Source: an uncultured archaeon (GTDB taxonomy: Archaea > Asgardarchaeota > Lokiarchaeia > Sigyniarchaeales > SOKP01). Taken from it: DNA of 64,000 bases. Shown one piece after another: positions 12,263-63,117 of this stretch. Where the stretch lies: the NCBI GenBank assembly GCA_964486045.1, contig CAZALK010000020.1:23510-87509 (forward strand), given 5' to 3'. The notes beneath the pieces were generated by a model that saw nothing but the letters and a program-made list of their open reading frames with translations, ran no database searches and was not told where the DNA came from. Position numbers and translations under genes: made by a program. How positions within the stretch are numbered: the stretch's first letter is position 1; every line of letters starts with the position of its first letter.

Positions 12263-15200
12263 ATGCACATAAATCAAAAGATTTCTCTTAAAAAAAAGAG
12301 GATCAATTGCTTATTTGTTATAATTTCGATGTTTTTTTTAATTTTATTCATTAATTTGAATTTAATCAATAATTCGAATCTAACTATCTATGATTCAAAA
12401 AATCCAAATGAAGACCATAATGATTCCTTTCAAAATATAAAAACTTCCAATTCAGAATCTATTTTATTCCAAGGAACTGAAGCCCATTTAAATATAACTG
12501 ATACTGGTAATTTCTATGAATATAATCAAGAGATATCAGTATCGAATCAAGGGGAAACAAATTTAACATATTATTTAGACGATGTACATGACTGGAAAGG
12601 TTCAACAATAGAAACTACGATAACAAATATTCAAGATACTAGAAATTGGATTAATAATTCTGGATTTAAATCTCCTATAATTTATAGAGTATATCAAGTC
12701 TTTCAGACAGATCATAACTATTCAAATAATAATAATCTAAATTGGGCTAGTCCAGAATCTTCTGTTTTTGAGTCAGGAGCAAAATATATTAGAGTTCATT
12801 TTGTTAATTTTTCTTTTGAGCTAAGTTATGATTTTTTATATCTTGCTAATGAAACTAATGATATCTACTATGTGAATGATAGTAAAGCATATGATTTATT
12901 TTCTCCGTGGATTCCTGGGGAATATATCAAAATAGATTATGATTCTGATAATTCTGTTGATGATTATGGTTATTATATCGATTATTATGAATATATTAAT
13001 GATAGTTCAAATACCGTAATTAATTCAGAATGGAGTTTTAATTATAACCAAATTGGAACAACTGGAAGGAATTATAATGGGGTAAGTGAGATTGACAATA
13101 GTACAGCTATGTATGTTGCTATGTATGCAGAATATCTGGATTACAATCAATTTAGTTATGAAGATGGAGCATTTTCTGAAGTTTATCAGGATTTTAGTAT
13201 ACCTAGAGGTACAGTAAGTGACGCTTACATAAGTTTTGATTATTATGCTCAATATGGATTAGCAACGAATGATAACTATGTATATGTTTCAATTAATAAT
13301 AAAAAAATATATTCCAAAGGAATTGCAGATCTATTAGAGTTAGGTAAGAACCAATGGCATAAAACTGGAAAAATCACTACTAATTTTTGGGTTAATTCTT
13401 CTTCTATTTTTGATTCAAATGTTCAAAATCAGCAATTTAATATTTCAATAGGGATAAAATGTGCTGGTGGGTATACATACACTAATTTTGATGATGGCTT
13501 TTTAAATATTATTTGGTTTGATAATGTATCCTTAGTTTTATCAACAATAGGAAACTCAAGCCAAGATGATATAAATTTAAAAATTAATTCAGAGAATTTA
13601 TTTGAAGGAAATGAATGGGGGTTTTCAAACTTAAACTTCACCGGAATTTGGGAAACAAATCCAGTAACTCTATCAATAAATACAACATCGCCGGATCTAA
13701 ATTTCATTTTAAATACTACGATATATGGGAATCACTCTGGGACTTCAAAAATTAATCAACAAAATGATGAAGGAATTAGCTATAAAATTTTGAATAACGG
13801 GTCAATTTATTGGGATTTTTTTCACAATTTTTATATGCCCTCTCAATACTCTGATTTTGAATTCAATATACAAAAGCCAAAAAATTGGAAATTTTTAGAT
13901 AGTTTAGATCCTACTCTACAATCTCGATCATATGAAGGTGGAGATATAGGAGATTCATTTTTGAAGATTAACAAAACAAATGCAATTTTTCCTGGATGGT
14001 GGTCATTTAGAGCTGAATCTCCTAATTACCTTAATATTTTAAATTCTAAAATACTTAAGGAAAGTCAGTGGGTTACAAATGCGTCATTTAACACCGGAGA
14101 ATCAACTCGAATAAAAACTCAATTAAATTACTCAGGTGAAATACCAAATGATGCAGGAGTAATTAATCTTACAATATATCATCCCAATGGAACGATTTTT
14201 TATGAAGAAAGCGTAGCGCCATTCGGTGGTAATGTATCATTTTCAGAAATTACCTTTGGGGTGTATAATACTAGTGGCGGTCTTTATGAATATACTCTAT
14301 TTTGGAGTAATAGTACTGCATTAGGAGGTTTAATATCAAGTTTTATTGTCATGCATCAAAGTTCAATAACTTTATTAAAACCGGATAATGCAATTTCCGA
14401 TTTAATAACAGATGCTTTTTTTGGAGATATAATTCCATTACGGATCCAATTAAAAGATTTAGAAAATAATAGATCACTTTCAGGAGCCATGGTTACTTAT
14501 AATTGGTCAACAGGGTTAGAGAACTTTGCAGAAGCAGCTTTAGGAATATATGAAACAATATTAGATACCTCTGAATTAAATTCAAATGGCTTTTATGAGA
14601 TTTTCATCAATTCTTCCAAACTTGGATTTACAAATTATAATATAACAGTAAAAATCAATTTGCTTGAGGAAACTAACTTACTCCGCTTGGAATCATCGTA
14701 TTATATTGAATTACATGATAATAGTACAGTTAAATATAGTTATACTAATTTTTCAGGAGGTGGTATTTCAAGTGCTATTGTAGACATTAATTTAAATAAT
14801 TCCTATTAGAGTATAACAGATTTTCTTGACGGTAATTATACTGTAGAATTCGATACTTCATATATTAATAATTTAGGAGTTCATCAAATAGAATTAAACT
14901 TTTCTAAACCTGCATTTGAAACTAAATATGCATTACTTCAGTTTGAAATAATAGAACAGTCTGTAAATTTGTCTGTATATATAAATTCTCAAAAAATTCA
15001 AGAAAACTCATTAATCGAAGCGATGTTTAAAGGAACTTTAAATATATCCGTAAGAATTTTTGCTACAATTGATGAGACCTATCTTTCAGGAGGTAATGTG
15101 ACATGGGATTCTGACAAATATTATAAAGAAATTTTAGAAGGATCAAATTCTTGGTTTAATTATTCAATTCAATTATCAAGTAACAATTTCTCAATGGGTT

Positions 15201-17065
15201 TAAATTTCGTGCTCATACAATTTGAGCAAGCAAATTATAGAATCAGCAGTTTTGGGTTCCAAATATTAATGGAAGCGCAAACTGTAAACATATCAACGTT
15301 TATAAATGGAGAAGAAATTCCTGAAAATTATATTGAAGAGTTAACTTTCAAGGAATCAATGAATATTTCAGTAAAAGTATTTGCTAATGGTGAGAGTGTT
15401 TATTTATCTGGGGCAAATGTCACATTAATCGGTGATACCCTTAACACAATAGTACCTGAAACTGTTTTTCCATGGTATAATACTTCCATTATAATTTCGA
15501 ATTCTTATTTTAACCCCGGTGTAAATTATGTTTATTTAAAATTTCAACTTGAAAATTATACAACAGACACTTTTTCATTTCAATTGATAATCAAAACCCA
15601 AACACTTAATTTGTCTGTATATGTAAATTCAGAGAAAATATCAGAAAATAATCTTTTAGAATTCAGATTTAATGAAGAATTCTCTATTTCTGCCCAGAGT
15701 TTTGCGACTGCAGAGGAAGTTTATTTAACTGGAGGAATATTAACTTTTATTGCTAGTACTTATGAAAAAAACTTAACAAATCTTTCCGATTGGTATAATT
15801 CAACAATATCCTGTTCACCAGACATTTTCTCAATAGGAGTTAATTATATATATTTGAGATTTCAAAAGGAGAATTACTCTACAACTCTTTTTTCTTTTCA
15901 ATTACTAATTGATCAAATTGATCTTCAAGTAGATTCGATAGGTTTTGAGGACACTATTAATGTCGAAATAGGTGAGACATTTATTATTCAGCTAAAACTA
16001 TTAAATCCTAATAATAATATGACGATTGAGTCCGCTACTATAAGTTTCACGTGGGAATATGGATTTGGAGTGTTTAACGCTACACAAAATGGAATTTATC
16101 AATATACATTAAAATTACCTAAAAATCTAAGAGGAAATTATCAATTTAATCTAATTATTATTCCAGATAATACAACTTATAAAGCAGTCCAACATTCTTT
16201 TGTTGTTGTAATTAATGAGCCAATTATCCAAAATAATTCTCCAGGATTTTTATTATTGAGCATTATTCTCATTTTAATTGGTATTGTGAGTGCATTAGGA
16301 GTTCTTAGTTTGAGATCTTATGTATTATTGCCAAGAAGAAGGAAAAAGGAATCAGAATTATTATCGAAGACTCAAAGATTCAAGGATCTTAAAAATATTC
16401 AAGCAATTGTTATGATACATAGAATAAGTGGAATACCACTTTACACAAAGACTTATTCGATTTTAGAAAAGCATAAAAAAGAATTGTTTTCAGGGTTTAT
16501 TCAAGCTATTACAACAATTGGAGAAGAATTTACTGATTCTGAAGAAATAGAGAGTAGATTGGATGCAAAGAAAGAAAACTTCGGAATTGAAAAGATAATT
16601 GAATTAGATTTTAAATATTTTTATTGCTTAATTTCGGATAAAGAAGATATAAGAATAGTATTTATCCTCAAAGAAAAATCTTCAGAACGACTGAAAAGTC
16701 AAGTTTCACATCTTTTGCTGGCTTTAAACCTCAAATTATCACAATATATAGAAGATTGGGATGGTTCTTTAGACATATTTGAGGAGATGGTTCCTACGAT
16801 AATAGGTGAGTATTTCGAGTTATATTATAAAGGCTCATTTAAACTTCCTAAAAAATTAAATCTTTTTAAATTAAGGAAAGATAAGTCTCTGTCGAAGATG
16901 GAAATTCGAGTTCTAAATGTAGTTGAATCAATGTTAAAAAGGGGTGAGGAGATTCTAACTTTAAACAGTATTCTCGAATTGGTTAGTGAAGAAAATAAAG
17001 ATCTGATTATTGAAGCAATTGAGGTATTGATAGAAAGAAAATTAATTATTCCCGTCAATCCTTAA
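12263..17065 (+). pseudogene. 1600-codon surface protein (signal anchor, CUB-like domain, Ig-like repeats, TM, cytoplasmic longin-like + wHTH) interrupted by one in-frame TAG at 14807-14809
   Basis: ORFs 12263-14809 and 14969-17065 share a frame. The gap reads *SITDFLDGNYTVEFDTS...FEIIEQSVNL with no stop. CUB-like IRVHF.NFSFE..YDFL...DSDNSVDDYGY; many NxS/T sequons; TM LLLSIILILIGIVSALGVL followed by RRRKK; longin-like SGIPLY...LFSGFIQAI. Confidence 0.8.
14960..15915 (+). repeat. Three diverged coding repeats with a 321-nt (107-aa) period, Ig-like beta-sandwich
   Basis: Units start at 14960, 15281 and 15602: N(L/I)S..(I/V)N...I.EN ... YL(S/T)G ... W(F/Y)N ... G(L/V)N(F/Y)....F...NY....F.FQ. 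Confidence 0.85.
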
Positions 17066-17113
17066 ATTTATAATAATAAAATTCAAATTTTAATTTATTT
17101 TTCTTTGACTTGA

Positions 17114-17734: not shown

Positions 17735-17759
17735 GCCAACAAGTTAAAATAACGTTAAT

Positions 17760-19533: not shown

Positions 19534-19626
19534 TTCCCGATTTCCTATTTTATTAAAAGGTATATATTGAAAATTATAAATCTATGTTAACATATATATG
19601 TTATAAAAAATAAAACATTTTCACTT

Positions 19627-20391
19627 ATGGAGGGTAATATTTTCGACCAGATTGCTAAAGATTATCACTCAAAAAGGAGAAAACCGTGGAAACCTCTTGA
19701 ATTCTTTTTTAATTATTTAAAAAGGAAGAAATATTTGTTTAGAGGGATGTCTCTAGATTTGGGTTGTGCAAATGGTAGAAATTTCAAGATTTTAGGAAAT
19801 TATCCCAAAAAGCTAATAGGAATTGATAATTCACTTGAATTCCTAAAATTAGCTCAGATTGGTTTAAAGAACTCAGAAAAATATCTAAAATCAGAATCAA
19901 ATTTAATTCAAGTTCTTCTTGCAGATTTAAATTACCTACCAATTAGAAAAAATTCAATCCAAAATATTTTCTCCATCGCGACTATTCACCATATTAAGCA
20001 TAAATCTACACGAAATAAACTCATATCTCAATTTAATCATATTTTAAAAATAGATGGAAACCTTTTAATAACTGTGTGGCGTAAATGGCAAAAAAAATAT
20101 CGAAGTTATTTTCTTTTAGATGGAATTAAAAGGAGTTTTAGTTTTAAACATAAGAAGCAACAAAAAATTGATGGTTTGAGTCAGTTTGGGGATAAATATA
20201 TACCATGGACGCTTTCAGAAGAAAATATGATATTTAGTAGATATTATCATTTTTTTTCCAAACGAGAGGTTAAGAATTTATTAAAGAACTTTACGATAAA
20301 AGAATTTAAAATTATGGGTGGTCCAAATAATCATGATAACTTTTTTATTTTAGCCCAAAAAAAAATTATCAGTGGCATTCAATCGAGTTGA
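19627..20391 (+). CDS. Class I SAM methyltransferase, Trm9/ALKBH8-like tRNA methyltransferase
   Basis: KRRKPW, LDLGCANGRN, SIATIHHI, LLITVW, IPW, RYYHFF. Confidence 0.75.
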   Translation: MEGNIFDQIAKDYHSKRRKPWKPLEFFFNYLKRKKYLFRGMSLDLGCANGRNFKILGNYPKKLIGIDNSLEFLKLAQIGLKNSEKYLKSESNLIQVLLADLNYLPIRKNSIQNIFSIATIHHIKHKSTRNKLISQFNHILKIDGNLLITVWRKWQKKYRSYFLLDGIKRSFSFKHKKQQKIDGLSQFGDKYIPWTLSEENMIFSRYYHFFSKREVKNLLKNFTIKEFKIMGGPNNHDNFFILAQKKIISGIQSS

Positions 20392-20860
20392 GGGTTTTCA
20401 ACAGACTTGGTTTAAAATTATCATACATGCTTTCTATTACTGCCGTATGAATATTTATTAGTCTCTCAGATATTTCGCAAAAGAAAATACCATGTATTAC
20501 CCTTTCAACAAAATATCTTTTTCTTATCATTTTCCTTCGATGCCCATACCAGAATGTAAATTCATGGGCCATTAGCCAATCTCTTTCTTTTTTAGTTACT
20601 ACAATGCCTATTGCATTATAGGTTTCAATGCACCTTTCAACTTCTTTATAATAGAAAAGATTTGCTCTATCTTTTTTTTCCCAATTTAATTCAATTGTGG
20701 AATCTGGACCCCAAATCTCATCATAGTCATTTTGAGAATGAAATATAATTGAACCATTGTTTTCATCACCTTCAAATTCTGTTTCTTTAAACCAAATCGC
20801 CATCTTATTAATTGATAAATTGCATTCCGATTTTTTGTATACATAAAAACTATATTCCAT
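20369..20860 (-). CDS. Hypothetical protein
   Basis: 163-aa ORF, convergent with and overlapping the methyltransferase 3' end. Confidence 0.65.
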   Translation of the reverse strand: MEYSFYVYKKSECNLSINKMAIWFKETEFEGDENNGSIIFHSQNDYDEIWGPDSTIELNWEKKDRANLFYYKEVERCIETYNAIGIVVTKKERDWLMAHEFTFWYGHRRKMIRKRYFVERVIHGIFFCEISERLINIHTAVIESMYDNFKPSLLKTLNSIECH

Positions 20861-21006
20861 GGTTGAACCTACTCAGGTTGATTGTTAATTGAATAAGGAA
20901 ACTTATTTCTAAAATATATTTAGTATTTATAAAGCTTCTGGTACAAGAAAATACCTAAAAATAAAATAGGTATAAAGGTTGAAACTACTAATTAAAATAA
21001 TAGATT

Positions 21007-21744: not shown

Positions 21745-22383
21745 TTATTCCCTTTTAACGATGTCTAATTGTTCTAATTTTTTAAGTGCATCAGCAATCT
21801 CATTTCTTTTCGAGCTTAACATTCTCGAAATTTTCAGAGCTGAATTTTTTCCAGTGCATAATAAAGCAATTTGAAAATCATAATCGGTTATTAAACCCAT
21901 TGTCAAGACTTTTTCTAATACACTTTTTGCGACCAGCAATTCAGGAAATCCTTCTGCGATTTTTCCTCCCCTTGTTAGATTTTCAACATCAGCATTTAAT
22001 GTTTGAAATCGACCCTTTTCCGTTGTAGCTCTAAAGACTTTAAGATCTGACTGATGCTTTTTCCAAAATCTTTTTGCAATTTTATGAATTACATCCTTTA
22101 TTTTTTCTGTATCATCATCTGCGTCAGAAATCGAACAAAATAAGACTCTAGATAAAGGATGATAATAAATTAGAACAGTTGAATCTTCAGATTCTATAAC
22201 TCTATTCATCTCATTCACTCGTCTTCCCTTTACCATTGATTCTTGAATGATATCGATTGTTTTACTAATCACATTAAAAAATCCAGTTAAAATATCATCT
22301 TGGATTTTTTTTAATTCTTTAAAGGTTGATTCAAAAAGTGAAATTCCATTATCTCCATCGATTAAATAAACTTTATATATCAA
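21745..22383 (-). CDS. Longin-like domain + C-terminal winged-helix protein
   Basis: MIYKVYLID...GISLFE..F.....DDILTGFF..I; C-terminal LCTGKNSALKISRML.....IADALKKLEQLDIV. Confidence 0.65.
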   Translation of the reverse strand: MIYKVYLIDGDNGISLFESTFKELKKIQDDILTGFFNVISKTIDIIQESMVKGRRVNEMNRVIESEDSTVLIYYHPLSRVLFCSISDADDDTEKIKDVIHKIAKRFWKKHQSDLKVFRATTEKGRFQTLNADVENLTRGGKIAEGFPELLVAKSVLEKVLTMGLITDYDFQIALLCTGKNSALKISRMLSSKRNEIADALKKLEQLDIVKRE

Positions 22384-22534
22384 ATTTTCAACAAATTTGC
22401 ACTATATTCTTCTTATAAAAGTAATAAAATCTCATCCTTTTGAATTTTTATTAAATCAAGTTTCTAAATAATTAAAATTAAAAGCTGAAAATTTATACAT
22501 TTTATAAAAACTATTTAAATTCACGATTTCAAGA

Positions 22535-23782
22535 ATGAAAACAAAGAAAGTATTTCTTTTTATGTTCTTATTTTTTTTTCCGGTATCAATTTCAGCTTAT
22601 CCGAACTTACCGACACCATCAACAATGTTGGATAATTTTCCATTCACATCTTCCCCTGATTATGGTGTTTCTAATTATAATATTACCCAAAGTGTAAAAT
22701 ATAATATAGAAATCAACTTTACTTTAACTCACAAATCAGGTCCTGGTTCCTATTATTTTAAATTTGCACGATTAAATAACAGAATGCCAAACTCAACAAA
22801 GTCTCAATATACTCCCCCTTATCAAGAGAGTAATCTTTTATATAATAATATAACAGGATACTCAGTGCTTAATATGGACCATAATGACCAATTTAATAAC
22901 ACTTATGACTCTTTTAACGCAACATTACTACCCGAAGAAACAGTTACATTAAGTCAACACTATATCACTGAAGTAAATGCTATCAATTTTCTGGAAGTTG
23001 ATATGGCAGATATTGAGGTCTATAATACGTCAGATGAAATATTCTCTTTATATTCTAACAATACAGAACTATATTATGAGCGAAACAATTCCGTTTTAGT
23101 TGATTTGTCTAATAACCTTGTAGATCCAGCTGATAATCCGATAGAAAAAGCGCAGAAGATTTTTAACTGGGTTATAAGCAACCTTGAATATAATGGAGAG
23201 TTACCTGCTCAAGAAAAGGGAGCCCTTTGGGCTTATAATAATCTAAAGGGAGATTGTAGTGAATATTCGAGTTTGATGATTACATTATTACGTATTCAAG
23301 GTATACCAGCTCGCAAAATAACCGGATTCTTAGTATCTAATAACCTCGCTTTGAGACCTCAAGCAGGTAATTCTTGGAACTTCTATGTCTCAGATTCAGG
23401 CGATAACATGTTAGGACATGCTTGGATTGAATATTATGTTCCTAATATTGGCTGGATTGCAAGTGATCCTACTTGGAAAACAGGTTATTTTAATAATATT
23501 GATTATCTTCGGTTCCATCTCAATGTAGGAGCGAACATCTTTTTTCCTCCTGATAGTACTGTGAGTGAGTTTGCTAATCCCATTTTTGCTTATTCTGGAG
23601 GAGCAACCTTTACATTTAGTTATGACATTGATATAACCGTTATAGAGTCGAACCTGTTACCGTTGGAGCAATTCCCATTATTGTTTGCTATATTTATTGG
23701 GGTAGGGGCTGCCGCTGTGCTATTTACACTGATTATTATAATAAAAAGAAGTCGCAAGAAAGATTTTTTTGAATATGAATAA
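22535..23782 (+). CDS. Secreted, C-terminally anchored transglutaminase-like protein
   Basis: Signal peptide; catalytic triad GDCSEYS / GHAWIE / SDPTW; C-terminal TM followed by KRSRKK. Confidence 0.9.
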   Translation: MKTKKVFLFMFLFFFPVSISAYPNLPTPSTMLDNFPFTSSPDYGVSNYNITQSVKYNIEINFTLTHKSGPGSYYFKFARLNNRMPNSTKSQYTPPYQESNLLYNNITGYSVLNMDHNDQFNNTYDSFNATLLPEETVTLSQHYITEVNAINFLEVDMADIEVYNTSDEIFSLYSNNTELYYERNNSVLVDLSNNLVDPADNPIEKAQKIFNWVISNLEYNGELPAQEKGALWAYNNLKGDCSEYSSLMITLLRIQGIPARKITGFLVSNNLALRPQAGNSWNFYVSDSGDNMLGHAWIEYYVPNIGWIASDPTWKTGYFNNIDYLRFHLNVGANIFFPPDSTVSEFANPIFAYSGGATFTFSYDIDITVIESNLLPLEQFPLLFAIFIGVGAAAVLFTLIIIIKRSRKKDFFEYE

Positions 23783-23814: not shown

Positions 23815-25281
23815 CTAAATATAAGTATGGATTAACTCCAGCAGATTTTTTGAGAAATCTGGTAAGTTTTTCTCTATTTTTTTAATTTCAAGAGATTTTT
23901 CAATAAACATTAGTAAATATAAGTTATATTTTTCAACTTGGATTTTTTTAAAAACAACTTTCTTAGAGTCGTCAGCAATTCCGGTGGATACTAAAAAATC
24001 TTGTTTCAATACTTTGAATTCCTTAAAGGTTTTATACAAGGTTTGAAAGTGAGGTGCTGAGATTTCAAAAACCCTGTCAGATATCTCAGATTTTGAAAAA
24101 TTGGATAATATTATTCCATTTTCGTTAAGTAATAAAATTGCGTCTGAATTCGTTTTTCTTGCGAATTGCTTCAATTGATTTCTGAATAATTCTCGATTAG
24201 GACTTAACTGAGAAAGTCCATATGAATAAGCAGTAATAAGACTCCAATGGTCGAAAATACTAGTTTGGAATATTTTAGTTAAAAATCGATCAGATCTCTT
24301 TTCTACCTCATCAGCAATAATTTCTAAATTTTTAAATATTTCTTTTGAACCCTTCAGATCAGGATCGAATTTATTTAAACACACAACTATGGGCGGAAAT
24401 TCATCTAATTCGACTAATATTTTCGAAATTCTTTGGAAAAGATTTAATGCTTCTTCAATTCTCTCTACATCTTGTATATCAATAAAGAAGAAAATTAGAT
24501 CAACATTATATAAATAGACTTGACTTTGCTCAAGAAATCTTTCTAAATATTTTTTTTGGCCACCTATATCCCATAGAGAGATTAACGAGTTCTGTTCTTC
24601 AAATATATTCTCTTCTGTTCTTTCAACACCTTTAGTAGGTAATGATTTGATAATTTCTGAATATTTCTTTCTGATTCCATAAAGAAAACTTGATTTACCA
24701 GCCTTATCTAATCCTGTCAATAATATTTTAATTTGTCTTTTTGGAGAAAAAGGATCTTTTAATTCTTTTGTAAACTCGAATAGTTCTTCTCTAATATCAT
24801 CCATTATTCGTTTCTGGTCATTAAATTCTTTTACATTCTGAATTTGTGTAGCTGTTTTATCGATTATAATCCTTAAATATTTCATATTTTCATAAAAAAA
24901 AACCTTATCTTCTTCGTCAATTAATACAGTTATTGTCGCAGCTAGTGCTTGACCGCGTGCTTTTTCATCAGGGATAAGAAAAAAATAAGTTAAGCCATTC
25001 AATTTTAAATCAGGAAAAGGAAGAATTCCAAAGTAGTTAACTCCTATGTCTGATCCCTGAGAATTTTGATAAACTGAATCACCCATAAGCAAACTAATAG
25101 TTTTCATAGCTATTAGAAGTCCTGATTTCTCTTCTAGGTTAGAAGGCCATATTATTCTAGGTGTTGGGCCTTTTTCATCAAAAATACTTAAAACAACCGC
25201 TTTTATTAGATTGGATTTTTTGTCACCTGTATCGTTTCCTTTCATCTTCTTCTTATTCGAATTTGAGTCGGTTTTTGCCAA
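23815..25281 (-). CDS. uDENN/longin-like domain + Arf/Rag-like small GTPase + roadblock-like domain
   Basis: SIFDEKGPTP N-domain; G1 GLDKAGKSS, G2 PTKG, G3 WDIGGQ, G4 NKFD, G5 TSI; C-terminal AILLLNENGIILS. Confidence 0.85.
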   Translation of the reverse strand: MAKTDSNSNKKKMKGNDTGDKKSNLIKAVVLSIFDEKGPTPRIIWPSNLEEKSGLLIAMKTISLLMGDSVYQNSQGSDIGVNYFGILPFPDLKLNGLTYFFLIPDEKARGQALAATITVLIDEEDKVFFYENMKYLRIIIDKTATQIQNVKEFNDQKRIMDDIREELFEFTKELKDPFSPKRQIKILLTGLDKAGKSSFLYGIRKKYSEIIKSLPTKGVERTEENIFEEQNSLISLWDIGGQKKYLERFLEQSQVYLYNVDLIFFFIDIQDVERIEEALNLFQRISKILVELDEFPPIVVCLNKFDPDLKGSKEIFKNLEIIADEVEKRSDRFLTKIFQTSIFDHWSLITAYSYGLSQLSPNRELFRNQLKQFARKTNSDAILLLNENGIILSNFSKSEISDRVFEISAPHFQTLYKTFKEFKVLKQDFLVSTGIADDSKKVVFKKIQVEKYNLYLLMFIEKSLEIKKIEKNLPDFSKNLLELIHTYI

Positions 25282-25444: not shown

Positions 25445-27253
25445 TTATGAAAAAAATCCCAATCTTACTAGTTTAGACGGTAAAAAGATTCTATTTACAA
25501 AATCCTCTAGAGTTAGATTACTTTTTGTAAGTTCAGTTAAAGATATATATTCAATTGCACCATTTTGGATAAACTGGTGGTAAACCTCTTGATTTTTAAC
25601 TTTTTGTATTACATTAATTTCAGAATCTTCCCGAAAATGAGCAGTATTTGTATAATATGACATTTTTCCTTTGAATTGGGGAATCGCTACTCCTGGAAAA
25701 TGTTTTAGATCTAATTTTGCAAATCTGGAGGGTGATTTTTCAGAGGTATTTTCACTTAATACATGGCGAATATTACTATTCTTAGATAGCTCTTTACAGA
25801 CTTGATTCATCTCAATTAGGATTTTTTTGCCAAAAGTGAATACATCTGAACCTTCGTGCAGCTCGTAATCTGTTAAGAATTTAATAGCTTCGTTTAAACC
25901 AATAAAACTTATTGATAAGTATTGATTTTCTAAATTATAGAGATTCTGATTCTTAATATTAGTATTAAATAACGGCAAGTGATTTGACTGTAACCTTCTT
26001 CTTATGATATCATATTTTTTTAGTAAAATCCTAGAAGATAAATTCATTTTAGCTTTGAGTATCTCTAAGAAATCATCTTCATCCTTACTCAGATAAGCAA
26101 AGCGAGGAAGGTTCAAACAAACCTCTTGAAGCATCCCTTGGTTATCATAACTAGGATAAGAAATTTTTTTACCTTTTTCATCATTGAAAAGGTGAGCATT
26201 TGAATTTAATAAAATTGGAGTTCTCATTGTTAATGTTTCATCCCAGACTTTATGATAAGCATCACCATACTTATTTAACAGTGTTTCATTAATATAAATT
26301 TCATGTTTGGGAGTATTAAATGGATTTTTATTATCATCACCTCCTTTAAAATTATAGGTAAAGGAGTTAAATATCTTCAGACAATCCTCATAATAATCTT
26401 CATAACATCCCTCGATTTTTCCAAAGGGTCCAACTGCAGGGTATTTTAATAAATATTTAACAATAGTAGGGTGAGTCATAATAGTGGTTGGAGGAATTGT
26501 CCGACCGGTTATTACTGAAAAATAATTCATTTCATAAATGAAATTCCTTATTATATGATTTAAATCTTGTTCATTAGATTCTTTAACATATGGTGCTAAG
26601 TAGATATTAATATTATTATATCCTTGACTTCCACAAATTTCATTTTGAGTTAATAATAACCATTTAATTAAATGATCGCAGGCTTCCCTTAAGTTTTTTG
26701 CTGGTTTAAGTTTGCAACAAGGAAGATTTTTATTTAGAGGTGGTAAGCCATTTTCTAAAACGATACTGGGATCCCAAATTTGAGTCAGTGGTTTTAAATC
26801 AAAATATCGCAACTTATGAATATGGATGTCTCCGTATAAATGAGCCTTGGATTCTTCATTGGTGAGAATTCTTAAATGAGCATATTCTTCAGAGATTCGA
26901 TTTGAAGCCCAATTATGTATTTTCTCGGGGTTTATCACAATTTTTGGGTAATCAACCAAACCCTTTTCGAGAATTTCTTCATAATCCATTAATGGCATTC
27001 CAATTCTAGTGTATAATTTACGTTCATTTTCAAAATGTTGTTCAGAAAGTATTGAGCATACAATTTCTCTTATATGCGGTCCAGAAAGAAATTTGATGCC
27101 AGAACTAATGATCCTTCTTACTACAAGTTCAGTAATCCTCTTAGCTTTGTCTTCACTCAAGTTAGTCTCTTTAACAATGCTTTCAAAAATTATCGGGGAG
27201 TTAAAATCTGTTAAATCCCCTTCAGTTCTGAAAACTTTTGGTAATAAATCCAT
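25445..27253 (-). CDS. Degenerate class III ribonucleotide reductase (NrdD)-like protein with ATP-cone
   Basis: ATP-cone (FLSGPHIREIVCSIL, RKLYTRIGMP), AHLYGDIHIH, KPAKN, LNLPR, IGLNE, RFAKLD, YYTN; no finger-loop Cys, Zn ribbon or RxxGY. Confidence 0.8.
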   Translation of the reverse strand: MDLLPKVFRTEGDLTDFNSPIIFESIVKETNLSEDKAKRITELVVRRIISSGIKFLSGPHIREIVCSILSEQHFENERKLYTRIGMPLMDYEEILEKGLVDYPKIVINPEKIHNWASNRISEEYAHLRILTNEESKAHLYGDIHIHKLRYFDLKPLTQIWDPSIVLENGLPPLNKNLPCCKLKPAKNLREACDHLIKWLLLTQNEICGSQGYNNINIYLAPYVKESNEQDLNHIIRNFIYEMNYFSVITGRTIPPTTIMTHPTIVKYLLKYPAVGPFGKIEGCYEDYYEDCLKIFNSFTYNFKGGDDNKNPFNTPKHEIYINETLLNKYGDAYHKVWDETLTMRTPILLNSNAHLFNDEKGKKISYPSYDNQGMLQEVCLNLPRFAYLSKDEDDFLEILKAKMNLSSRILLKKYDIIRRRLQSNHLPLFNTNIKNQNLYNLENQYLSISFIGLNEAIKFLTDYELHEGSDVFTFGKKILIEMNQVCKELSKNSNIRHVLSENTSEKSPSRFAKLDLKHFPGVAIPQFKGKMSYYTNTAHFREDSEINVIQKVKNQEVYHQFIQNGAIEYISLTELTKSNLTLEDFVNRIFLPSKLVRLGFFS

Positions 27254-28343: not shown

Positions 28344-29429
28344 TTATTTTTTTAATCCTAAATAATGTTTTACTTGTTTTTTTATAAGATTCATAGCAAT
28401 AGAAATAATACCACTCTTAACTTGAGGATGTGAAAACAGTATTAAAATCATATCTTTAAGACTCGAAGTTTCTAGATCAAGAAATGCCATATCTAAAACT
28501 CCCTCAGTACCTCTCACTGATATCGATCTTAAAGCTCCAGCACTTAAACCATCGATGATATCCGCACTTATCATTGAAAGATTTATCCCTATTGTACCAA
28601 ATAAGGATTCCGATATTCTACTTGAAATAGCTGACGCTAACATTGTCCCATCTGTTTTTATGATTGCTGATGCCTCAATTTTTGAATCTAAAGTTATCAA
28701 TTCTTTTAATATCTCATTCATCGAAGCTGGTGGTAATTTATTTTTTGGTTCTTTCTGAGAAGTTGATTTAGGTTCTTTTAGTTTTATTTTATTTACGATA
28801 ATTTTCTTTGATAGAAAACCAAGAACCTCCGACATGTCTTTCTCTAGTTTCTTCTGTTTTATAATAGCAAGATCTGAGTCTACAGTTTTAAGGGGGAGCG
28901 GAGTTGTAGATGGTTTAGGTTTCTTAATTTCAACTTCGAGAACAGATTTTTTAAGTTCTTTTAGTGCATCTGAGATAACTCCATTAGATTTAGGGATGAG
29001 AGAAATGAATTCTTTTTTGTCTGAGAGAATAGTACCTTTAAATGGTTTCGGGGTTATTTCTTGTAATATTGGGGGGGTTTTTTCTTCTAAATTGTGTTTC
29101 GTTTCTAGAGGTATTTCTGTAAGGGAATCCGATTCAATTTCTTCATTATCTTCTATTGGAATATCACCAAGCTTTGAAAAATCACTTAGTTTCTCTTCTT
29201 CTATCGGTATCTCATGTAATTCTAATTCTTCTGGTTCTAGATCTTCCGGTACTTTAGGTTCTTCTATTATTTGAGTAATAGGAACTTTTTTTGCTTTTTC
29301 TTCTTTAACGGTTTTAGGTTTTTTAGGTCTAGAGGTTCTAGTAGAAATTGGTAGTAATGCCCCACATGTTCTACAGATACGAGTTTTTTTCTCATTATTT
29401 GTTGTCCCACAGTTATTACAAATTATTAT
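28344..29429 (-). CDS. Zn-ribbon + acidic/Pro-rich linker + roadblock/LC7 domain protein (361 aa, non-ATG start)
   Basis: The frame of ORF 28344-28835 stays open upstream to the TAA at 29433-29435. It reads IIICNNCGTTN...RICRTCGALLP, with ATA at 29429 8 nt after GGAG. Roadblock motif IEASAIIKTDGTMLASA...L..ISVRGTEG. Confidence 0.8.
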   Translation of the reverse strand: MIICNNCGTTNNEKKTRICRTCGALLPISTRTSRPKKPKTVKEEKAKKVPITQIIEEPKVPEDLEPEELELHEIPIEEEKLSDFSKLGDIPIEDNEEIESDSLTEIPLETKHNLEEKTPPILQEITPKPFKGTILSDKKEFISLIPKSNGVISDALKELKKSVLEVEIKKPKPSTTPLPLKTVDSDLAIIKQKKLEKDMSEVLGFLSKKIIVNKIKLKEPKSTSQKEPKNKLPPASMNEILKELITLDSKIEASAIIKTDGTMLASAISSRISESLFGTIGINLSMISADIIDGLSAGALRSISVRGTEGVLDMAFLDLETSSLKDMILILFSHPQVKSGIISIAMNLIKKQVKHYLGLKK

Positions 29430-29665: not shown

Positions 29666-30640
29666 TTATTTATAGAGGATCTCTTTCAATATTTTTGCGA
29701 AAGCTTCAAAGTCTTCTTTGTTAAAAACAGGATTATCTTTTAATAGAAGTAAGTAATAGGGTGTGGACTCTTTTCGTAACGAAATCTGTTTAAACATGAA
29801 ATTTTTCCCATATCTTTGTACAATCATTCTTTCCTCGTACTTTTTCTCCAAAACGCTTGTGGATTGAAAGGAATCATGAAGAGTGAGAAAATATGGGGTT
29901 GAAGCGGTGAGTAGGTGCCGAGTCTCATCATCCTTATAATAAGATCCAATTATTAGTGAATTGTCGTCAATTACTACTACCCCACCGGAATCTACCTTTT
30001 TAGCAAATTCTACAATTGTTTTTTCAATTAATTCAGATTTTGGATAGAGACTTAAAAGGATTTCAGACATGGCTGCTATTATTGATGAGAATTCATAAAT
30101 GGAGGTTTCATAGAAATAAATTTCCTTATAATCTGTAGCGTTTCTTATTAGTTCCTTTAAATCTATTATAAGATTTTCCATTTCATTTAAGGCACCCCTC
30201 TTTAAAGCAGGATCATATTTATGAAGGAAAACATAGATTGGTGGTTCAATTTCCAATTTGTTAAACTGCTCAATAACATCTTTAAAATAACTTATTGCTT
30301 CAGGTATTCGCGGTTTATTCTGGATATCAATAACATAGATGGCAATTTCAGTTCCATCAAAGTATTTATTTGGCTTTTTTAAATAGGAGATCCTATAGCT
30401 AACCTGCCCGCCTAAATCCCATTCACTTATCTCTTTTCCTAGAAAATCGAATATTCTCCTTTGCGCTCCTCTCGTAGGAGATAATACAGCAATTTTTGAG
30501 AATTCTCTTTGGAGAGATAAAATTATGCTTGTCTTGCCTGCATCATCTAGCCCCGTAAATAAAATCTTTGAAGATTCGGGTTCAGCTTCTAGATCATCTT
30601 TTTTTAAATACAAGATTGATTGTTTAAGATTTTTCTCCAT
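29666..30640 (-). CDS. Arf/Rag-like small GTPase with C-terminal roadblock-like domain
   Basis: GLDDAGKTS, PTRG, WDLGGQ, HKYD, ETSI; C-terminal GVVVIDDNSLIIGSY; AGGTGA RBS. Confidence 0.88.
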   Translation of the reverse strand: MEKNLKQSILYLKKDDLEAEPESSKILFTGLDDAGKTSIILSLQREFSKIAVLSPTRGAQRRIFDFLGKEISEWDLGGQVSYRISYLKKPNKYFDGTEIAIYVIDIQNKPRIPEAISYFKDVIEQFNKLEIEPPIYVFLHKYDPALKRGALNEMENLIIDLKELIRNATDYKEIYFYETSIYEFSSIIAAMSEILLSLYPKSELIEKTIVEFAKKVDSGGVVVIDDNSLIIGSYYKDDETRHLLTASTPYFLTLHDSFQSTSVLEKKYEERMIVQRYGKNFMFKQISLRKESTPYYLLLLKDNPVFNKEDFEAFAKILKEILYK

Positions 30641-46914: not shown

Positions 46915-47967
46915 TTGAAAACCATGGAAAGACAAATAATTAAAGCTGTAGTATACAGTAATTTAGATGAAGAATTGGGTCCCGATCCTAAAGCTTTTAC
47001 ACCTGATAATTTTCCTCTAGTAAATTTAATGCTTATTAGTATGAAAACCTTTGCCGTTCTTACTGGTGAGAAAGGATTTATACCGGAGTCACTAGTTATT
47101 CTTCCGTTTCCATCACTTAAACTAAAGGGTTTAATTAAGTATATTAATTGGGAGGACCCAAAGAAACGAGGGGGTTTTGGCCAATCTAATATTGCGATAT
47201 TTTTCCAAGAAATGGATGATGCAATTTTTTATAAGTATTTAAAGGAACTCTCAGCTCCGTTTAACGATGTAGCCCAAAACATCGCATTTTTAGAAAAATC
47301 TAATGCTCCTAAGGAAGATTATATTAATGAGTTAATAAATCTTCAAAATGCATTAACCGAAATTTTAGAAGAATTAAGAAGCATAGAGCTTTCGAAGTCA
47401 AACGTTGAGTCGTTGGAAGGGAGAATTAAGGATAGGAATTTGATAGATTTTCAATTTAAAATTATTCTTGTAGGGGATCCAACGGTAGGAAAAACAAGTC
47501 TAATTCTAAGATATACTGATAATGCTTTTAGGCGAGCATATGTTTCAACTATGGGTGTTCATGTTTCAAATAAAATATTTAAAGCTGAAGATTCTGCGAT
47601 TATCCAGCTTGTTTTATGGGACATAGGAGGTCAAGAAAGATTTAAAATAATGAGGCAACAGTTTTATCAAGGATCTGATGCAGTATTTATAATTTTTGAC
47701 CTTACTAATCCCGATTCATTTAGAGGTGTGCCTAATTGGTATTCAGATATACAAAAACTATTAAAATTAAATAAAGAAGATACTCTAGGTTTCCTAGTTG
47801 GAAATAAGAGGGATTTAGATAAGGACATAAAAATAAAATCTGAAGAGGCTCAAAATCTGGCCGAACAGTTCAATTTAGAATATCTTGAAACTTCAGCACT
47901 CTCAGGAGAAAACGTTTATGCCGTTTTCAGCAATATCGCCAATTTACTCTATGAATCGAGAAAATAA
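46915..47967 (+). CDS. uDENN/longin-like domain + Rab-like small GTPase
   Basis: SNLDEELGPDP, ILPFP, RGG; GDPTVGKTS, STMG, WDIGGQERF, NKRD, ETSAL; no C-terminal Cys. Confidence 0.88.
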   Translation: MKTMERQIIKAVVYSNLDEELGPDPKAFTPDNFPLVNLMLISMKTFAVLTGEKGFIPESLVILPFPSLKLKGLIKYINWEDPKKRGGFGQSNIAIFFQEMDDAIFYKYLKELSAPFNDVAQNIAFLEKSNAPKEDYINELINLQNALTEILEELRSIELSKSNVESLEGRIKDRNLIDFQFKIILVGDPTVGKTSLILRYTDNAFRRAYVSTMGVHVSNKIFKAEDSAIIQLVLWDIGGQERFKIMRQQFYQGSDAVFIIFDLTNPDSFRGVPNWYSDIQKLLKLNKEDTLGFLVGNKRDLDKDIKIKSEEAQNLAEQFNLEYLETSALSGENVYAVFSNIANLLYESRK

Positions 47968-48146: not shown

Positions 48147-48980
48147 TTGTATATTGATTGTCATGCACACTTATTTTTTAACCCTATTCACACAGAAGCT
48201 ATTGATGAAGATATCACAGGTGTTATCCCAACTCCTAATACAGATTTTATAAGTAAAACGATCTCTAACGCAGAAGAGAAAGGAGTTAGTCATTTTGTTG
48301 GAGTAATAAGCGATCCTAATAATTTTCCCTATTATCAGATTCAATTGGAGTTAGAAAATATTATACACATAATCGGGATCTCAAGGGGTAATGCACTTGG
48401 AGACCAAACACATATGTTTTCTCTACTGGAAAAGGAAATAGAAACAAAAATACCTCAAGGTATAGGAGAGATTGGTTTAGATTATGAATATGGTTTTGAT
48501 AAGTTAAATATCCATGAAAAAAACTTGATGAAAAAAAAACAGCAGGAATTATTTGGAAAGTAAATTCAAATAGCAAAAGAAATTAATATCCCTATTGTCG
48601 TGCATGCTGGGTATGGAACAGATAAAGATATTGTTACAATATTAAAACAAGAACAAGCTCAAGATGTGGGGGGGCAAATTCATGGGTATATGTCTAATGA
48701 GGTGTTAGTTTCTGAACTACTTGATATTGGTTTTTACTTTTCATTTGGATATTTTCACACGAGAGAAGACGAATTCAAAAAAATAATTGAATTAGTCCCT
48801 TTAGAACACCTTCTTGCTGAAACTGATTATCCATATCATTTACTGGATTCTCCAAAGAGATTTATATTTCCAGAAGATGTAGTTTTAATAACTGACGAGA
48901 TTGTTACTTTAAAAGTGATTGATTCTAAAATTTTTTGTAATCAGGTAATGAGAAATGCTAGACGACTCTTTAGATACTAG
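48147..48980 (+). pseudogene. tatD: TatD-family hydrolase with an in-frame TAA at 48561-48563
   Basis: DCHAH, GIGEIGLD, LFGK*IQIAKEINIPIVVH (TAA where TatD usually has Gln/CAA), IHGY, AETDYPY; both halves in one frame. Confidence 0.85.
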
Positions 48981-49282: not shown

Positions 49283-50332
49283 ATGATGAAAGAGATTATT
49301 AAATCTATTGTCTACACCTCAATGGATGAGAGGTTAGGACCGAGTCCGCATTTATGGTTGCCATTAGATTTACCCGAAGATATTCGAATGGGAGTAAGCA
49401 TAAAATCAATTACGATGCTTACAACAGATCAAGGAATTATCCCTAAATCATTAGTAATCATGCCCTTCCCTTCTTTTGGACAAAAAGGATTGATAAAATA
49501 TATTGAACGTGCAGATGATTCTCGCCGCGGAGGTATAGCATTATCATCAATTACACTATTATTTGATGAAGCCGATGATCTTATTTTCTATAAATACTTG
49601 GATTACCTTGAAACTGCGTTTTCTAAAAGCGCCCAGAAAATTATTGAATTAGAAAATCAGAATGCAGAAAGCGTTGAGATTTATGCAGAGATAAATATCC
49701 TTCGAAAAAACCTCACAGAAATTTTAAATGATTTACAAAACAAAGAAAAATCAATTATTGAAGGAAAGGCGTTTCCTAAAGAAGAAACTGATAAAGAGTT
49801 AGTTGGATTTCATTCCAAAATTATTGTATGTGGAGATCCATCTGTAGGTAAAACCAGTACTATCCTACGATTTACTGATAACGCTTTCATCCGTACTTAT
49901 ATCCCTACTTTAGGTGTAAGTATTTCTGAGAAAACTATCAAAATAAAAGAAGAGTATGTGAATTTAATCTTTTGGGATATAGCTGGACAAAGTAAATTTG
50001 AAATGATGAGGAGACATTTTTATCAAGGTGCAGAAGCGGTAATTGTTATATTTGATCTAACAAATCGTAAGTCATTTGAAAGTGTTTCAGGTTGGTATAA
50101 GGACATAAAGAGGTACATCGAAATCTACCAAAACACTTTAATAGGGTTTGTTTTAGGAAATAAAGAGGATTTAGTTGGTGAGAGGAAAGTTTCAACTGCA
50201 GAGGCTAGTAGTGTAGCCAAAAGTCTAAACATTGGATACGTCGAGACTTCAGCTAAGACTGGTAAAAATGTTGAACAGTTATTTTATAGAATAGCAGATT
50301 CTTTATTAAAAACAAAAAAAAAAAATGATTAA
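49283..50332 (+). CDS. uDENN/longin-like domain + Rab-like small GTPase
   Basis: SMDERLGPSP, IMPFP, RRGG; GDPSVGKTS, PTLG, WDIAGQ, NKED, ETSAK; paralogue of 46915-47967. Confidence 0.88.
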   Translation: MMKEIIKSIVYTSMDERLGPSPHLWLPLDLPEDIRMGVSIKSITMLTTDQGIIPKSLVIMPFPSFGQKGLIKYIERADDSRRGGIALSSITLLFDEADDLIFYKYLDYLETAFSKSAQKIIELENQNAESVEIYAEINILRKNLTEILNDLQNKEKSIIEGKAFPKEETDKELVGFHSKIIVCGDPSVGKTSTILRFTDNAFIRTYIPTLGVSISEKTIKIKEEYVNLIFWDIAGQSKFEMMRRHFYQGAEAVIVIFDLTNRKSFESVSGWYKDIKRYIEIYQNTLIGFVLGNKEDLVGERKVSTAEASSVAKSLNIGYVETSAKTGKNVEQLFYRIADSLLKTKKKND

Positions 50333-54010: not shown

Positions 54011-54013
54011 CCC

Positions 54014-54153: not shown

Positions 54154-54162
54154 CACTATATT

Positions 54163-56355: not shown

Positions 56356-56428
56356 TATGGGATGTCACTAACTTACTCCTTTTAAAATGGTTGAATTGAC
56401 ATGGATTTTTGGAAATAAAATAAAAAGA

Positions 56429-57583: not shown

Positions 57584-57635
57584 ATCCCTCTTAAAAAGGA
57601 GTATATATCAGGATAAAAAATAAAACTAGAATAAA

Positions 57636-59066: not shown

Positions 59067-59224
59067 TTAAAATCACTAATGTTAACTAAAATTTTAACAA
59101 AGATAATTAAATGTAGTTAAATCTTGTTCTATTTAAAATTATTTCATTAGAGTTATTAAAAATAAAATCTTCTTGATCTCAAAATTATGGAAATATACAA
59201 AAAAAATGAAAGTGTAAATTTATT

Positions 59225-59809: not shown

Positions 59810-59850
59810 CAACAAGTCGAAAAAAATCTTATTTATGAGGATTAAGTTTA

Positions 59851-60669: not shown

Positions 60670-60856
60670 TACTTAAGAATTTGAAAGTCTACTACTTAAA
60701 CTGCTTTTAGATTTTTACAATCCTCTTCTATTACGCTTAATATCATGTTTGAGTCGTCTCTGCGAGTTAATAATTCAAATGAACTCTATTCGAGACAAAT
60801 CTCAAGCAAATAAAATTAATACTTATATAAATTGCTCTAATAGTAAAATTCAACTA

Positions 60857-63117
60857 TTAGCTCGGAATTGCTATTGGAGTAAAAACTTTTTTCTTTATCA
60901 AGTTAAGTATATCTTCAGCATCTTTTACTTGGAATTTCTTCTTCCCAAATAAATTTGAAACATAAAAATAATCTGAATTATTTTGTTTCATAACTTTTAA
61001 CGCACGTTCAATAATTTGTTTTTCTGTTTGGCTAAACCTCACCTTTCCCAGTTTTACAACTTTTAAAGGATATATTAAAGTTATTTGCAAATATTTTTCA
61101 ACAATATCATGAATTTTTTTAAAGGGTCTAAGATCGCCATCAAAATTTTCCATATATTTTCCTAATTCTTCGTCAATTTCGATAGACAATGAATCAACGG
61201 TTTTTAAAAAATCTTCGGACGGGCTGTCTTTCATTATAAAGACTAATCTAAAATCCTTAAATTCCGACATTAAAATTTTCGAGTCGTGATATACTCTAGT
61301 TTTATTGTCTGTGATTCTTTTCTGCTTTTAGTTAATTCTATTCCAAAACCTCTAATTGCCTGTAGGAAACCGGAAATAAGGCTAGAATCCATCTCATTGG
61401 CTGTAATGATTTGATCATAAACTAATAAGCCGGAATTTTTATCAGAAACAATAAAATATTCAATATTTAGAGCATCCATGTATTCATTATAAATTCGTTC
61501 TCTTTTTTCGTTTTTAATTCTTTTATTCCTTTTTACTAAAACAAATGATGTAGCTGTGAGTAAAACTATGCTCGTTATCGATATCAATATTCCATAAATG
61601 ATTTCAATTGGAACTGTAAACGGCATAATAACCTGAAAATCATAAATCTGGAGTCCCGCATCCGTTGCATTATTCCAAAATATATAACACTTATATAATC
61701 CCTCCTCGGGGTTAGTAGATAAACTGTATGCAAAATAATTTGTATCTCCTAAGAGCTGTAGAGTTTCTGTTTCTATTGGAAACCCTAATGAATTGTAAAG
61801 GATAATGGTGTAATTTCCCTCCATGATTGGTTCTTGAATGGAAAATTGTATATCTTGTTGAGGCCCAAATGTACTTTTTGGAACATTTAGCTGAAAACTA
61901 ATCTGAGGTGAATTGGCAACGAATCTCCAAGTAGCTCCATCCTCGATTGTGGCATTCGGTACATAAAAAAGTCTCTTAGTATAATTTAGATATGTCTGGG
62001 GTGTTATATTTAATCCATTCTTATATATAGAAAAATTAAACCAATTCATAGGAAATAGAAATTTTATGGAGTAATTATATGAAATTCTTGTGATCTGAGG
62101 TTGTAAAATCCATTGAATAGATTTACCTTCGCGAATTACCCCCTCTGATTTCTCCATAAAACTGTTATGAATTGAAATTTTATATTCATAATTTAGCAAT
62201 AATTCAATGGATAAATTATTTAGAATAAAAATATTCATTGTTGCACTATATGGAGAGAAATTGAGATCTACAATGGAAAGAGTTCCTTTTCCAATTGATA
62301 TATCATTATTGACTTGAAAGGAATTATTATTTATTCGGGCGATCATGTTTATATCTTCTGGATAATAAGATCTATTAACTCTTTGCTTAATTTTATGTAG
62401 AAAAACATCCCCGAACCTGTTTTCCCAATCTGTGTCATCTTCATTGTATCTACACATATAAAGTGAAGAGTTGACGTTTAGATTATTAATATACCAATAA
62501 TACCGATCTTGCCAATTAGCACTCGTTCCATCTATTACTAAGCAGTAATAACCAGGTGAAAGGTTAATTGGGGAATTAAAATTCTGGATGTACCAATTAG
62601 GAATTAGGCTAGTATTCAATTCAATTTGTTCTCCATACACAACTCCGTTTGGCCTACGACTTCCTGAATTCCATCCTTCAATCCTCACATAGACAGGTCC
62701 TGGACTACTAGATCCTTCAGTTTTATAACCATAAATTTCCACGGCAAAAATGGTACTCTGCTCTGTAATATTTAATTGCATACCTGCAATTTCAATATTA
62801 TTTCTTCGGATAGTTTCGAATCCAGATTCTTGCTCTTCTACAGTTACCGTTTCACTGCCCATTTTAATACTTGTAAAATTAATAGTAATTGCTGATAAGT
62901 TCCAAGTAGGTGATGGAAAATCAAAATTTACTGATGATTCATTGCTCTTTTGACCCCATTCATTTGCAAATTCTGTTAACTCAAATAAAGAGTCAATTTC
63001 TAAGGTAGGACTCTGATCTTGAGCTCTAATAGGTACAATAAGAAAAATAATCTGTAGTACTATAACCAATGATAAAAGAAAACTGTATATCCTTTTTTTT
63101 GGTAAATATATCCCCAT
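60857..63117 (-). pseudogene. Surface protein (signal peptide, beta-rich ectodomain, TM, cytoplasmic longin-like + wHTH) split by a 2-nt insertion near 61290
   Basis: Removing AT from GAG TAT AT CAC GAC gives KLEYHDSKILMSEFKDFRL and fuses the two ORFs (752 aa); SGLLVY...LISGFLQAI...FDGDL. Confidence 0.8.

Follow-up and report, generated by a model that had tools for sequence, protein, structure and literature searches.

A stretch of 64,000 nucleotides (nt) from the genome of an uncultured Asgard archaeon (positions 23,510 to 87,509 of contig CAZALK010000020.1, assembly GCA_964486045.1; hereafter the window, part of contig C20) contains two genes, A (12263–17065, + strand) and B (63117–60857, − strand), for surface proteins in which an ectodomain is joined via one transmembrane (TM) helix to a common cytoplasmic tail made of a longin domain and a winged helix-turn-helix (wHTH)-like end. 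Judged by sequence comparison, this ectodomain-TM-longin-wHTH architecture is real, widespread, and under purifying selection. The window as a whole is best explained, with moderate confidence, as harboring three separate things: the disrupted surface-protein genes A and B, a conserved cluster around a soluble longin-wHTH protein (protein C), and a group of small GTPases with a folliculin-type longin domain. The source genome comprises 5.18 Mb in 45 contigs (31% guanine plus cytosine, GC); its relatives are Loki-type Asgard metagenome-assembled genomes ("Promethearchaeota"), and the sequencing runs listed as carrying DNA of the window are marine sediment metagenomes, with no RNA run among them. 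All open reading frames (ORFs) of the window were mapped, and Pfam was applied to nearly all of them. Most are housekeeping or metabolic genes, with the receptor, longin, and GTPase genes scattered between, which agrees with a preliminary description of this DNA, where these genes had been called dispersed rather than operonic.

The tails of A and B contain the motifs previously quoted for them (ISGIPLY in A and NSGLLVY in B; LFSGFIQAI and LISGFLQAI; WDGSLDIF and FDGDLRPF) and are 29% identical over 204 aligned residues. In a search of 13,453 ORFs, tail A directly found the second half of tail B (E-value 9e-7), and an iterated search with jackhmmer, starting from tail A, collected 45 ORFs of the source genome, protein C included. 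The common core of this family spans ∼140 amino acids (aa); some of the 45 members carry an additional 80 aa at the C terminus. The AlphaFold2 (AF2) model of tail A, computed from an alignment of 38 orthologs and paralogs, had a predicted local distance difference test score (pLDDT) of 76.6. Its strands (tail residues 23–30, 36–41, 88–93, 98–104, and 107–113) and helices (48–71, 119–141, and 148–161) follow the longin order ββ-α-βββ-α-α, after which comes a three-helix unit with short strands (helices 189–203, 211–218, and 223–235). In structural comparison with VIA-align, the model was closest to Sec22b (Z 12.8; 126 aa, 2.7 Å) and to the first longin domain of Fuzzy (Z 11.3), followed by VAMP7, Ykt6, the σ-adaptins, ζ-COP, and TRAPPC subunits. 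The roadblock proteins among the matches listed (LAMTOR, MglB) reached Z ≤10.0, below the longin domains. Foldseek placed ζ-COP and the σ-adaptins on top, with best E-values from 6e-5. The proposal that the tails are a longin fold followed by a wHTH-like end, put forward for checking by fold comparison, is supported by AF2, Foldseek, and VIA-align as to the longin fold, and the AF2 secondary structure fits a winged helix at the end.

As to the type of longin domain, stand-alone members of the family match the Pfam model Fuz_longin_1 (PF19036) with 33, 31, and 27.9 bits, above the cut-off of 26.1. Tails A and B have no Pfam match at E ≤0.1 and no direct match to a curated longin hidden Markov model; they are linked to Fuz_longin_1 only transitively, because jackhmmer joins them to the stand-alone paralogs above the cut-off. 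The longin domain of the tails is probably of the Mon1/Fuzzy type, the fold being called from the predicted model. The winged-helix parts are basic, with isoelectric points (pI) of 9.1–10.0, compared with an acidic longin part in tail A (pI 4.9) and a near-neutral one in protein C (pI 6.4). A profile of the winged-helix ends of the tails, compared with the sequences of the PDB, gave nothing significant.

The part of the protein outside the membrane behaves very differently from the tail. In both proteins, an N-terminal signal or anchor precedes a sequon-rich ectodomain, which is followed by one TM helix, a basic stop-transfer sequence, and the common tail. Gene A encodes 57 N-x-S/T sequons in 1356 aa versus ∼26 after shuffling, and its tail has none; gene B encodes 18 in 528 aa versus ∼7.5 after shuffling. 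In gene A (+ strand), the TM helix with the subsequent PRRRKK stop-transfer was located by hydropathy scan and sequence at 16235–16330, the longin domain (tail residues 23–167; AF2, VIA-align, and Foldseek) at 16397–16831, and the basic winged-helix-like domain (pI 9.1; AF2 secondary structure and charge) at 16862–17062. TM scan and tail match bear out what had been noticed beforehand, namely, two single-pass proteins with different ectodomains and one cytoplasmic module. Pfam scans of both ectodomains gave nothing useful, and a protein atlas search with the ectodomain of gene B and the N-domain of one of the GTPases (G4, see below) returned only scores below 0.85, to unnamed Asgard clusters, one of which bears an NPR2 label on 19% of its members. 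When the protein of gene A was aligned in full with three orthologs, the tails were 71–82% identical, compared with 31–33% for the ectodomains. Across the genus, tail identity ranges from 64 to 82%, and the tail is kept across families. The profile of the module matches 191 of 201 Asgard genomes, in which full tails often terminate open frames of roughly 750 to 2,300 aa.

The protein architecture previously given for A and B stands, but neither gene is intact in this genome. The first part of gene A (12263–14809, + strand) encodes the signal anchor and a sequon-rich stretch of ectodomain, can be aligned with intact orthologs over their N-terminal parts, and ends at an in-frame TAG (14807–14809). 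The frame beyond this codon is fully open and encodes the remaining ectodomain, consisting of repeated β-rich units (14810–16234), and everything downstream. Alignment with three intact orthologs (1309–1317 aa) passes straight over the position of the TAG. Orthologs of gene A are present in 16 of 18 genomes of the genus and, where contigs allow, are uninterrupted, with about 1100–1830 aa. In gene B, a −1 frameshift was found in the assembled sequence within an A4T4 run (about 61270–61280) inside the longin domain. The first part (61270–63117, − strand) runs from the signal through ectodomain and TM helix to halfway through the longin domain, where it ends at a TAA in this run; what remains of the longin domain, together with the winged-helix-like end, is read in the −1 frame (60857–61270, − strand). 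The numerous relatives of gene B are single frames of 743–799 aa; one contig carries several of them at short distances from each other.

Genes A and B are probably inactive in the source strain. A more far-reaching explanation, that they are dead or dying copies and that the "toolkit" of the window is not operating in this genome, whatever the family does elsewhere, stands somewhat short of an even chance. In its favor, a Logan contig from the probable source sample, belonging to an independent contig set and with a depth of ∼272, has identical letters at the TAG of gene A; the frameshift of gene B falls within the longin domain; and intact paralogs exist elsewhere in the genome (C27:3230–7414 and C11:133927–138267). 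In addition, a second sediment sample yielded a 23.5-kb contig (depth 74; flanks ∼97% identical) in which position 12331 is joined directly to 16681, which means that a sister strain is without almost all of gene A. On the other side, the frameshift of gene B is known from the assembled sequence alone, and the genome as a whole contains 183 pairs of same-frame ORFs of at least 120 aa separated by one stop (108 TAA, 40 TAG, and 35 TGA; some are merely neighboring genes), which leaves room for read-through or consensus errors. Furthermore, the frame of gene A past the TAG is still open and matches the tails of its orthologs well, so that any loss would be recent. Within the window, two further genes are split by single in-frame stops: that for an M29 aminopeptidase (10048–11157) by a TAG at 10546, and that for a TatD DNase (48147–48980) by a TAA at 48561. 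Recoding of the TAG in gene A was considered and rejected, since these other stops are TAG as well as TAA, and TAG terminates 5 of 46 ordinary genes. A PGF-CTERM archaeosortase signal in protein A was likewise rejected; the PGF preceding the TM helix is not conserved (orthologs have EFTS, QLPS, or GFPN), and 244 residues follow beyond the helix.

Protein C (21745–22383, − strand) is a soluble, single-copy longin plus wHTH protein. A soluble longin-like plus wHTH protein had been noted at this position before, and its membership in the same family as the tails was established by jackhmmer (E 1e-35). Among 30 relatives searched, 22 have an ortholog (71–88% identity within the genus, 35–44% in other families). 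Divergently oriented to it, across a spacer of 151 nt (22384–22534), lies a gene (22535–23782, + strand; Pfam Transglut_core, E 8e-25) whose transglutaminase-like product, a surface protein, begins with a signal peptide, retains the Cys-His-Asp core, and has a TM anchor at its C terminus. Three families, with genomes of 27–57% GC, have kept this pair. On the other side of C, a 163-aa protein of unassigned family is encoded (20369–20860, − strand); its position is conserved and it has no Pfam match. In a second family (genomes G030 and G024), the same order is found, that is, C, the transglutaminase-like gene on the opposite strand, and the gene for the Rag-like GTPase G1, with a GTPase resembling G2 beside it and the 163-aa gene also present, at identities of 33–42% for C, 30% for the transglutaminase, and 32–41% for G1. 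The third family has retained only C and the transglutaminase-like gene, as a divergent pair.

Within the family of the source genome, gene order proves little, because synteny there extends over all 20 kb of the region and takes in unrelated genes as well as the ortholog of gene A. The block recurs among 52 metagenome loci, in most of which the 163-aa gene adjoins C. Eight of the 52 have no transglutaminase-like gene; in these, G1 immediately precedes C on the same strand. That the core persists across families and survives local rearrangement is, at the sequence level, better evidence for a cluster than order is, and C, the transglutaminase-like gene, G1, and a second Rag-like GTPase stay clustered in both of the families that allow a check. 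A side observation concerns an NrdD-like gene (25445–27253; Pfam NRDD, E 5e-72) between G1 and G2, whose place is kept in most relatives and metagenome loci, a sign that gene order here is in large part general synteny.

Five small GTPases had been proposed for the window, and Pfam identified three Rag-like (G1–G3) and two Rab-like ones (G4 and G5). Five or more GTPases occur in only 3% of 64-kb windows of the genome. G1 (23815–25281, − strand) consists of a putative folliculin-type longin N-domain, a Rag-like G domain, and a C-terminal domain, an architecture labeled L-G-R for longin-GTPase-roadblock (PMC10933270). It scored 88.6 bits against Gtr1_RagA (PF04670; cut-off 22 bits) and matches RagA and Gtr1 chains of the PDB over residues 184–424. 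G2 (29666–30640, − strand; 86.7 bits) has the Rag-like G domain and C-terminal domain without the N-domain, and G3 (36338–37837, + strand; 66.8 bits) is a second L-G-R Rag-like GTPase. The C-terminal regions of G1–G3 measure ∼90 residues; it is over this part that G1 and G3 match one another. G4 (46915–47967, + strand) and its paralog G5 (49283–50332, + strand) combine a longin N-domain, in G4 followed by a long helix, with a Rab/Ras-like G domain (Pfam Ras, PF00071; 154.3 and 162.9 bits); their P-loops read GDPTVGKT and GDPSVGKT, respectively, and the DxxG and NKxD motifs are present. The tandem arrangement of this pair is conserved in most related genomes.

The N-domains of G1, G3, G4, and G5 belong to one family, which has six members in the genome, four of them in the window. 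In the AF2 model of G4 (pLDDT 87.4), residues 11–128 adopt the longin topology ββ-α-βββ-α-α at a pLDDT of ∼90, which supports, for these four, the earlier notion of longin-like domains fused to GTPases. An N-terminal F/Y-x-x-x-x-G-P motif and an arginine are conserved in the N-domains; the latter (R85 of G4) is found in at least 90% of 35 sequences and is missing in G3. Pfam Folliculin matched only G1, weakly (18.6 bits versus a cut-off of 23.3). A 1394-aa open frame elsewhere in the genome (C6:94189–98370) combines a match to the N-domain family with five or six PAS domains, which suggests that the folliculin-type longin may also be wired to classical sensor modules.

A roadblock protein had also been listed for the window, in which no ORF reaches a Pfam roadblock match. 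The best candidate, a possible roadblock/LC7 protein encoded downstream of G2 (28344–28835, − strand), has no Pfam match at E ≤0.01, and in the PDB its only match is the Thorarchaeal Robl_LC7 structure 7f8m, weakly (E 0.09, residues 39–151). A Ser-rich 146-aa ORF on the opposite strand (28834–29274, +), which begins at the last bases of this roadblock-like gene, partly fills the gap to G2, and lacks a Pfam match, is probably not a gene.

At the family level, the tail-type longin is tied to small GTPases by its gene associations, in four contexts including the protein C cluster. A 296-aa protein encoded at C17:94702–95589 is a fusion of a tail-type longin and a small GTPase. An operon at C6:13407–15650 comprises genes for a stand-alone longin (139 aa), a Rab-like GTPase (177 aa), and a longin-wHTH protein (366 aa). 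It is also present in genome G217. Of 60 genomes searched at E 1e-25, just one other has its longin-wHTH protein, which makes the operon lineage-specific. Finally, in Ca. Sigynarchaeum springense (L042, JAUQYZ020000150.1; 55% GC), a 1477-aa B-type receptor, a 209-aa Rag-like GTPase, and a 358-aa longin-Rab GTPase are encoded in a row on one strand (2149–8417), with gaps of 87 and 46 nt.

These associations do not extend to the specific pairing proposed in the preliminary description, according to which tails A and B heterodimerize with the longin N-domains of the GTPases in the window and thereby form a direct ligand-to-GTPase pathway. It is the least supported part of that interpretation, and we consider it highly improbable. 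It could draw on the longin topology of both partners, on the Sigynarchaeum row, where a B-type receptor lies directly upstream, on the same strand, of a mini Rag-like and a G4/G5-type GTPase, and on the fact that the four N-domain GTPases of the genome all lie in one 26.5-kb part of the window, although the genome has ∼96 small GTPases in total and the N-domain family numbers six. However, the two longin families are unrelated at the profile level, as hhalign between the N-domain and tail families gave a probability of 0.4%. As far as is known, longin heterodimers, among them Mon1-Ccz1, FLCN-FNIP, and NPRL2-NPRL3, are formed by close paralogs, which also speaks against the proposal. Among 52 loci with a G4/G5-type GTPase, retrieved from species genomes with a three-sequence N-domain alignment, a receptor lies within 10 kb in only 2, one of which is operon-like. 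Furthermore, the Sigynarchaeum row did not turn up on the contigs of the one other genome searched in its genus, the two gene sets show no proximity genome-wide (see below), and genes A and B are disrupted here. Complex prediction for the Sigynarchaeum receptor tail with the two GTPases gave scores of 0.07 and 0.03 (mark 0.32), run without controls, which speaks neither for nor against binding.

The likeliest role of the longin-wHTH module would be that of a platform on which a small GTPase docks or is regulated, as is the case for longins in Mon1-Ccz1, CPLANE, TRAPP, and GATOR1. By analogy with these systems, protein C would serve the adjoining Rag-like pair, G1 and the second Rag-like GTPase, and the membrane-tethered versions would place the same platform beneath the membrane, so that a surface protein with a fast-evolving, predicted N-glycosylated ectodomain would be coupled, via one TM helix and a strongly conserved cytoplasmic module, to some small GTPase. 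We give this interpretation about even weight. Several observations count against it. The membership of the tails in the longin class rests on iterated searches and a medium-confidence model. Gene order around C within the family is partly plain synteny, because unrelated genes (NrdD and a methyltransferase) are included, and in the second family the receptor genes are not part of the conserved core. Both A and B are interrupted, with gene A lost in the sister strain. Genome-wide, the 45 genes of the tail family are no nearer the ∼96 small GTPase genes than expected from random placement (P ∼0.4). Last, the winged-helix end is basic, and HTH-like in protein C, so that a role in transcription fits as well as a role with GTPases.

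This last point leads to the question whether longin-wHTH proteins are transcription factors, in which the winged helix binds DNA and the longin domain senses or dimerizes; C would then regulate the divergent transglutaminase-like gene, and the membrane versions would be tethered in the manner of ToxR or cleaved free. The contrast in charge between winged-helix and longin parts is consistent with this explanation, as is the conservation of the divergent C/transglutaminase-like pair with its ∼150-nt spacing in three families. Protein C has sub-threshold HTH matches (TrmB, 20.3 bits versus a cut-off of 25.6), and its orthologs repeatedly show matches of this kind to TrmB, HTH_24, HTH_47, and MarR/ArsR-type regulators of the PDB. 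No HTH match reaches the curated cut-off, however, and the putative DNA-reading helix of tail A is rich in glutamate. A membrane tether behind an ectodomain of >1000 aa is unusual for a DNA-binding protein, and the GTPase fusions and operons would be left unexplained, which makes a pure transcription factor module rather improbable. Somewhat less unlikely, though still at long odds, is that A, B, and their relatives are structural or adhesive surface glycoproteins whose tails serve sorting, clustering, or anchoring (e.g., to the cytoskeleton or ESCRT-like machinery) and not GTPase signaling. Ectodomains that are hypervariable and heavily sequon-rich, the many paralogs in related genomes, several of them close together on one contig, and the loss of gene A in the sister strain would all fit such a function, and longin folds also occur in SNAREs and in adaptor or coat subunits without guanine nucleotide exchange factor (GEF) or GTPase-activating protein (GAP) activity. 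This explanation is weakened by the conservation of the tail, across the genus and across families, which indicates a specific conserved partner, and by the occurrence of the same module in soluble proteins linked to GTPase genes. A DNA-binding role of the winged helix and a structural or sorting role of the tails thus remain live rivals of the GTPase platform.

The strongest version of the GTPase platform would be that the ectodomain-TM-longin-wHTH proteins are true receptors, in which binding or clustering outside assembles the longin platform inside and thereby switches a Rag- or Rab-like GTPase, with protein C acting likewise for the Rag-like pair and relaying its state to transcription via the winged helix. 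We regard this as a speculative and quite unlikely extension. If true, Asgard archaea would be able to act on a GTPase from the cell surface without a kinase, and membrane-anchored GTPase platforms such as Ragulator/GATOR and SRα/SRβ would have a prokaryotic forerunner.

The small GTPases of Asgard archaea number about a hundred, and their longin and roadblock proteins run to dozens. To our knowledge, almost none of them has a known partner or input. Operons as a route to the targets of the GTPases are listed as an open question by Dey et al (PMC4917890). A widespread family that places a longin platform directly beneath the membrane, behind a variable glycoprotein, makes the question of GTPase targets testable, and so does a conserved cluster tying a soluble longin-wHTH protein to a Rag-like pair; the tails and protein C are concrete candidates for a partner search in Loki-type archaea. 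Longin-GTPase and longin-GTPase-roadblock fusions have been published for Lokiarchaeum and MK-D1 (PMC10933270, PMC4917890), and G1, G3, G4, and G5 have exactly the published Asgard architectures (Tran et al, 2024, PMC10933270; Liu et al, 2020, 10.1101/2020.10.19.343400; Dey et al, 2016, PMC4917890). By text search, these three papers do not mention membrane-anchored longin-wHTH proteins, and a text search of the open-access literature retrieved no paper describing such proteins or the cluster of C and G1. Accordingly, the GTPase fusions are already published, and the membrane-anchored longin-wHTH architecture is absent from the open-access papers searched.

Compared with eukaryotic longins, the tails have, as far as the predicted model goes, the same fold and the same order of strands and helices as the Mon1/Fuzzy/HPS1-type domains (PF19036) and as Sec22b, VAMP7, Ykt6, the σ-adaptins, ζ-COP, and TRAPPC1/2/4. 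In the likeness to PF19036, it is the stand-alone paralogs of this genome that pass the Pfam model and not, directly, tails A and B. Fusion or operon linkage of some members of the Asgard family with small GTPases is reminiscent of Mon1-Ccz1 and Rab7 and of Fuzzy-Inturned and Rab23. In contrast to the eukaryotic domains, that of the tails sits between a TM helix and a winged helix, at the end of a large extracellular protein; a SNARE motif, a tri-longin build, and a DENN module are missing. For the tails, dimerization and GEF or GAP activity are conjectural. ToxR/CadC-type bacterial regulators likewise have a single TM helix between an outside domain and a cytoplasmic winged helix, and no kinase. 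Here, however, the winged helix is C-terminal, that is, the orientation is reversed, with a longin domain between it and the TM helix; the sequences are unrelated, and DNA binding is conjectural. In the longin-based GAPs for Rag GTPases, GATOR1 (NPRL2/NPRL3) and FLCN-FNIP, a longin domain is also followed by a further C-terminal domain, and the linkage to Rag-like GTPases (G1 and G2 beside C), the weak Folliculin match of the N-domain of G1, and the conserved arginine of the N-domains (R85) point in the same direction. Foldseek alignments with GATOR1/SEA chains span both domains of the tail, at TM-scores of only 0.28–0.32. Unlike with GATOR1, the Pfam scans gave no significant NPR2/NPR3 match, and no DEPDC5 or FNIP partner was found. 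As a rule, Asgard GTPase genes lie outside operons with longin or roadblock genes (PMC10933270; 10.1101/2020.10.19.343400; PMC4917890), to which the protein C cluster is one conserved exception.

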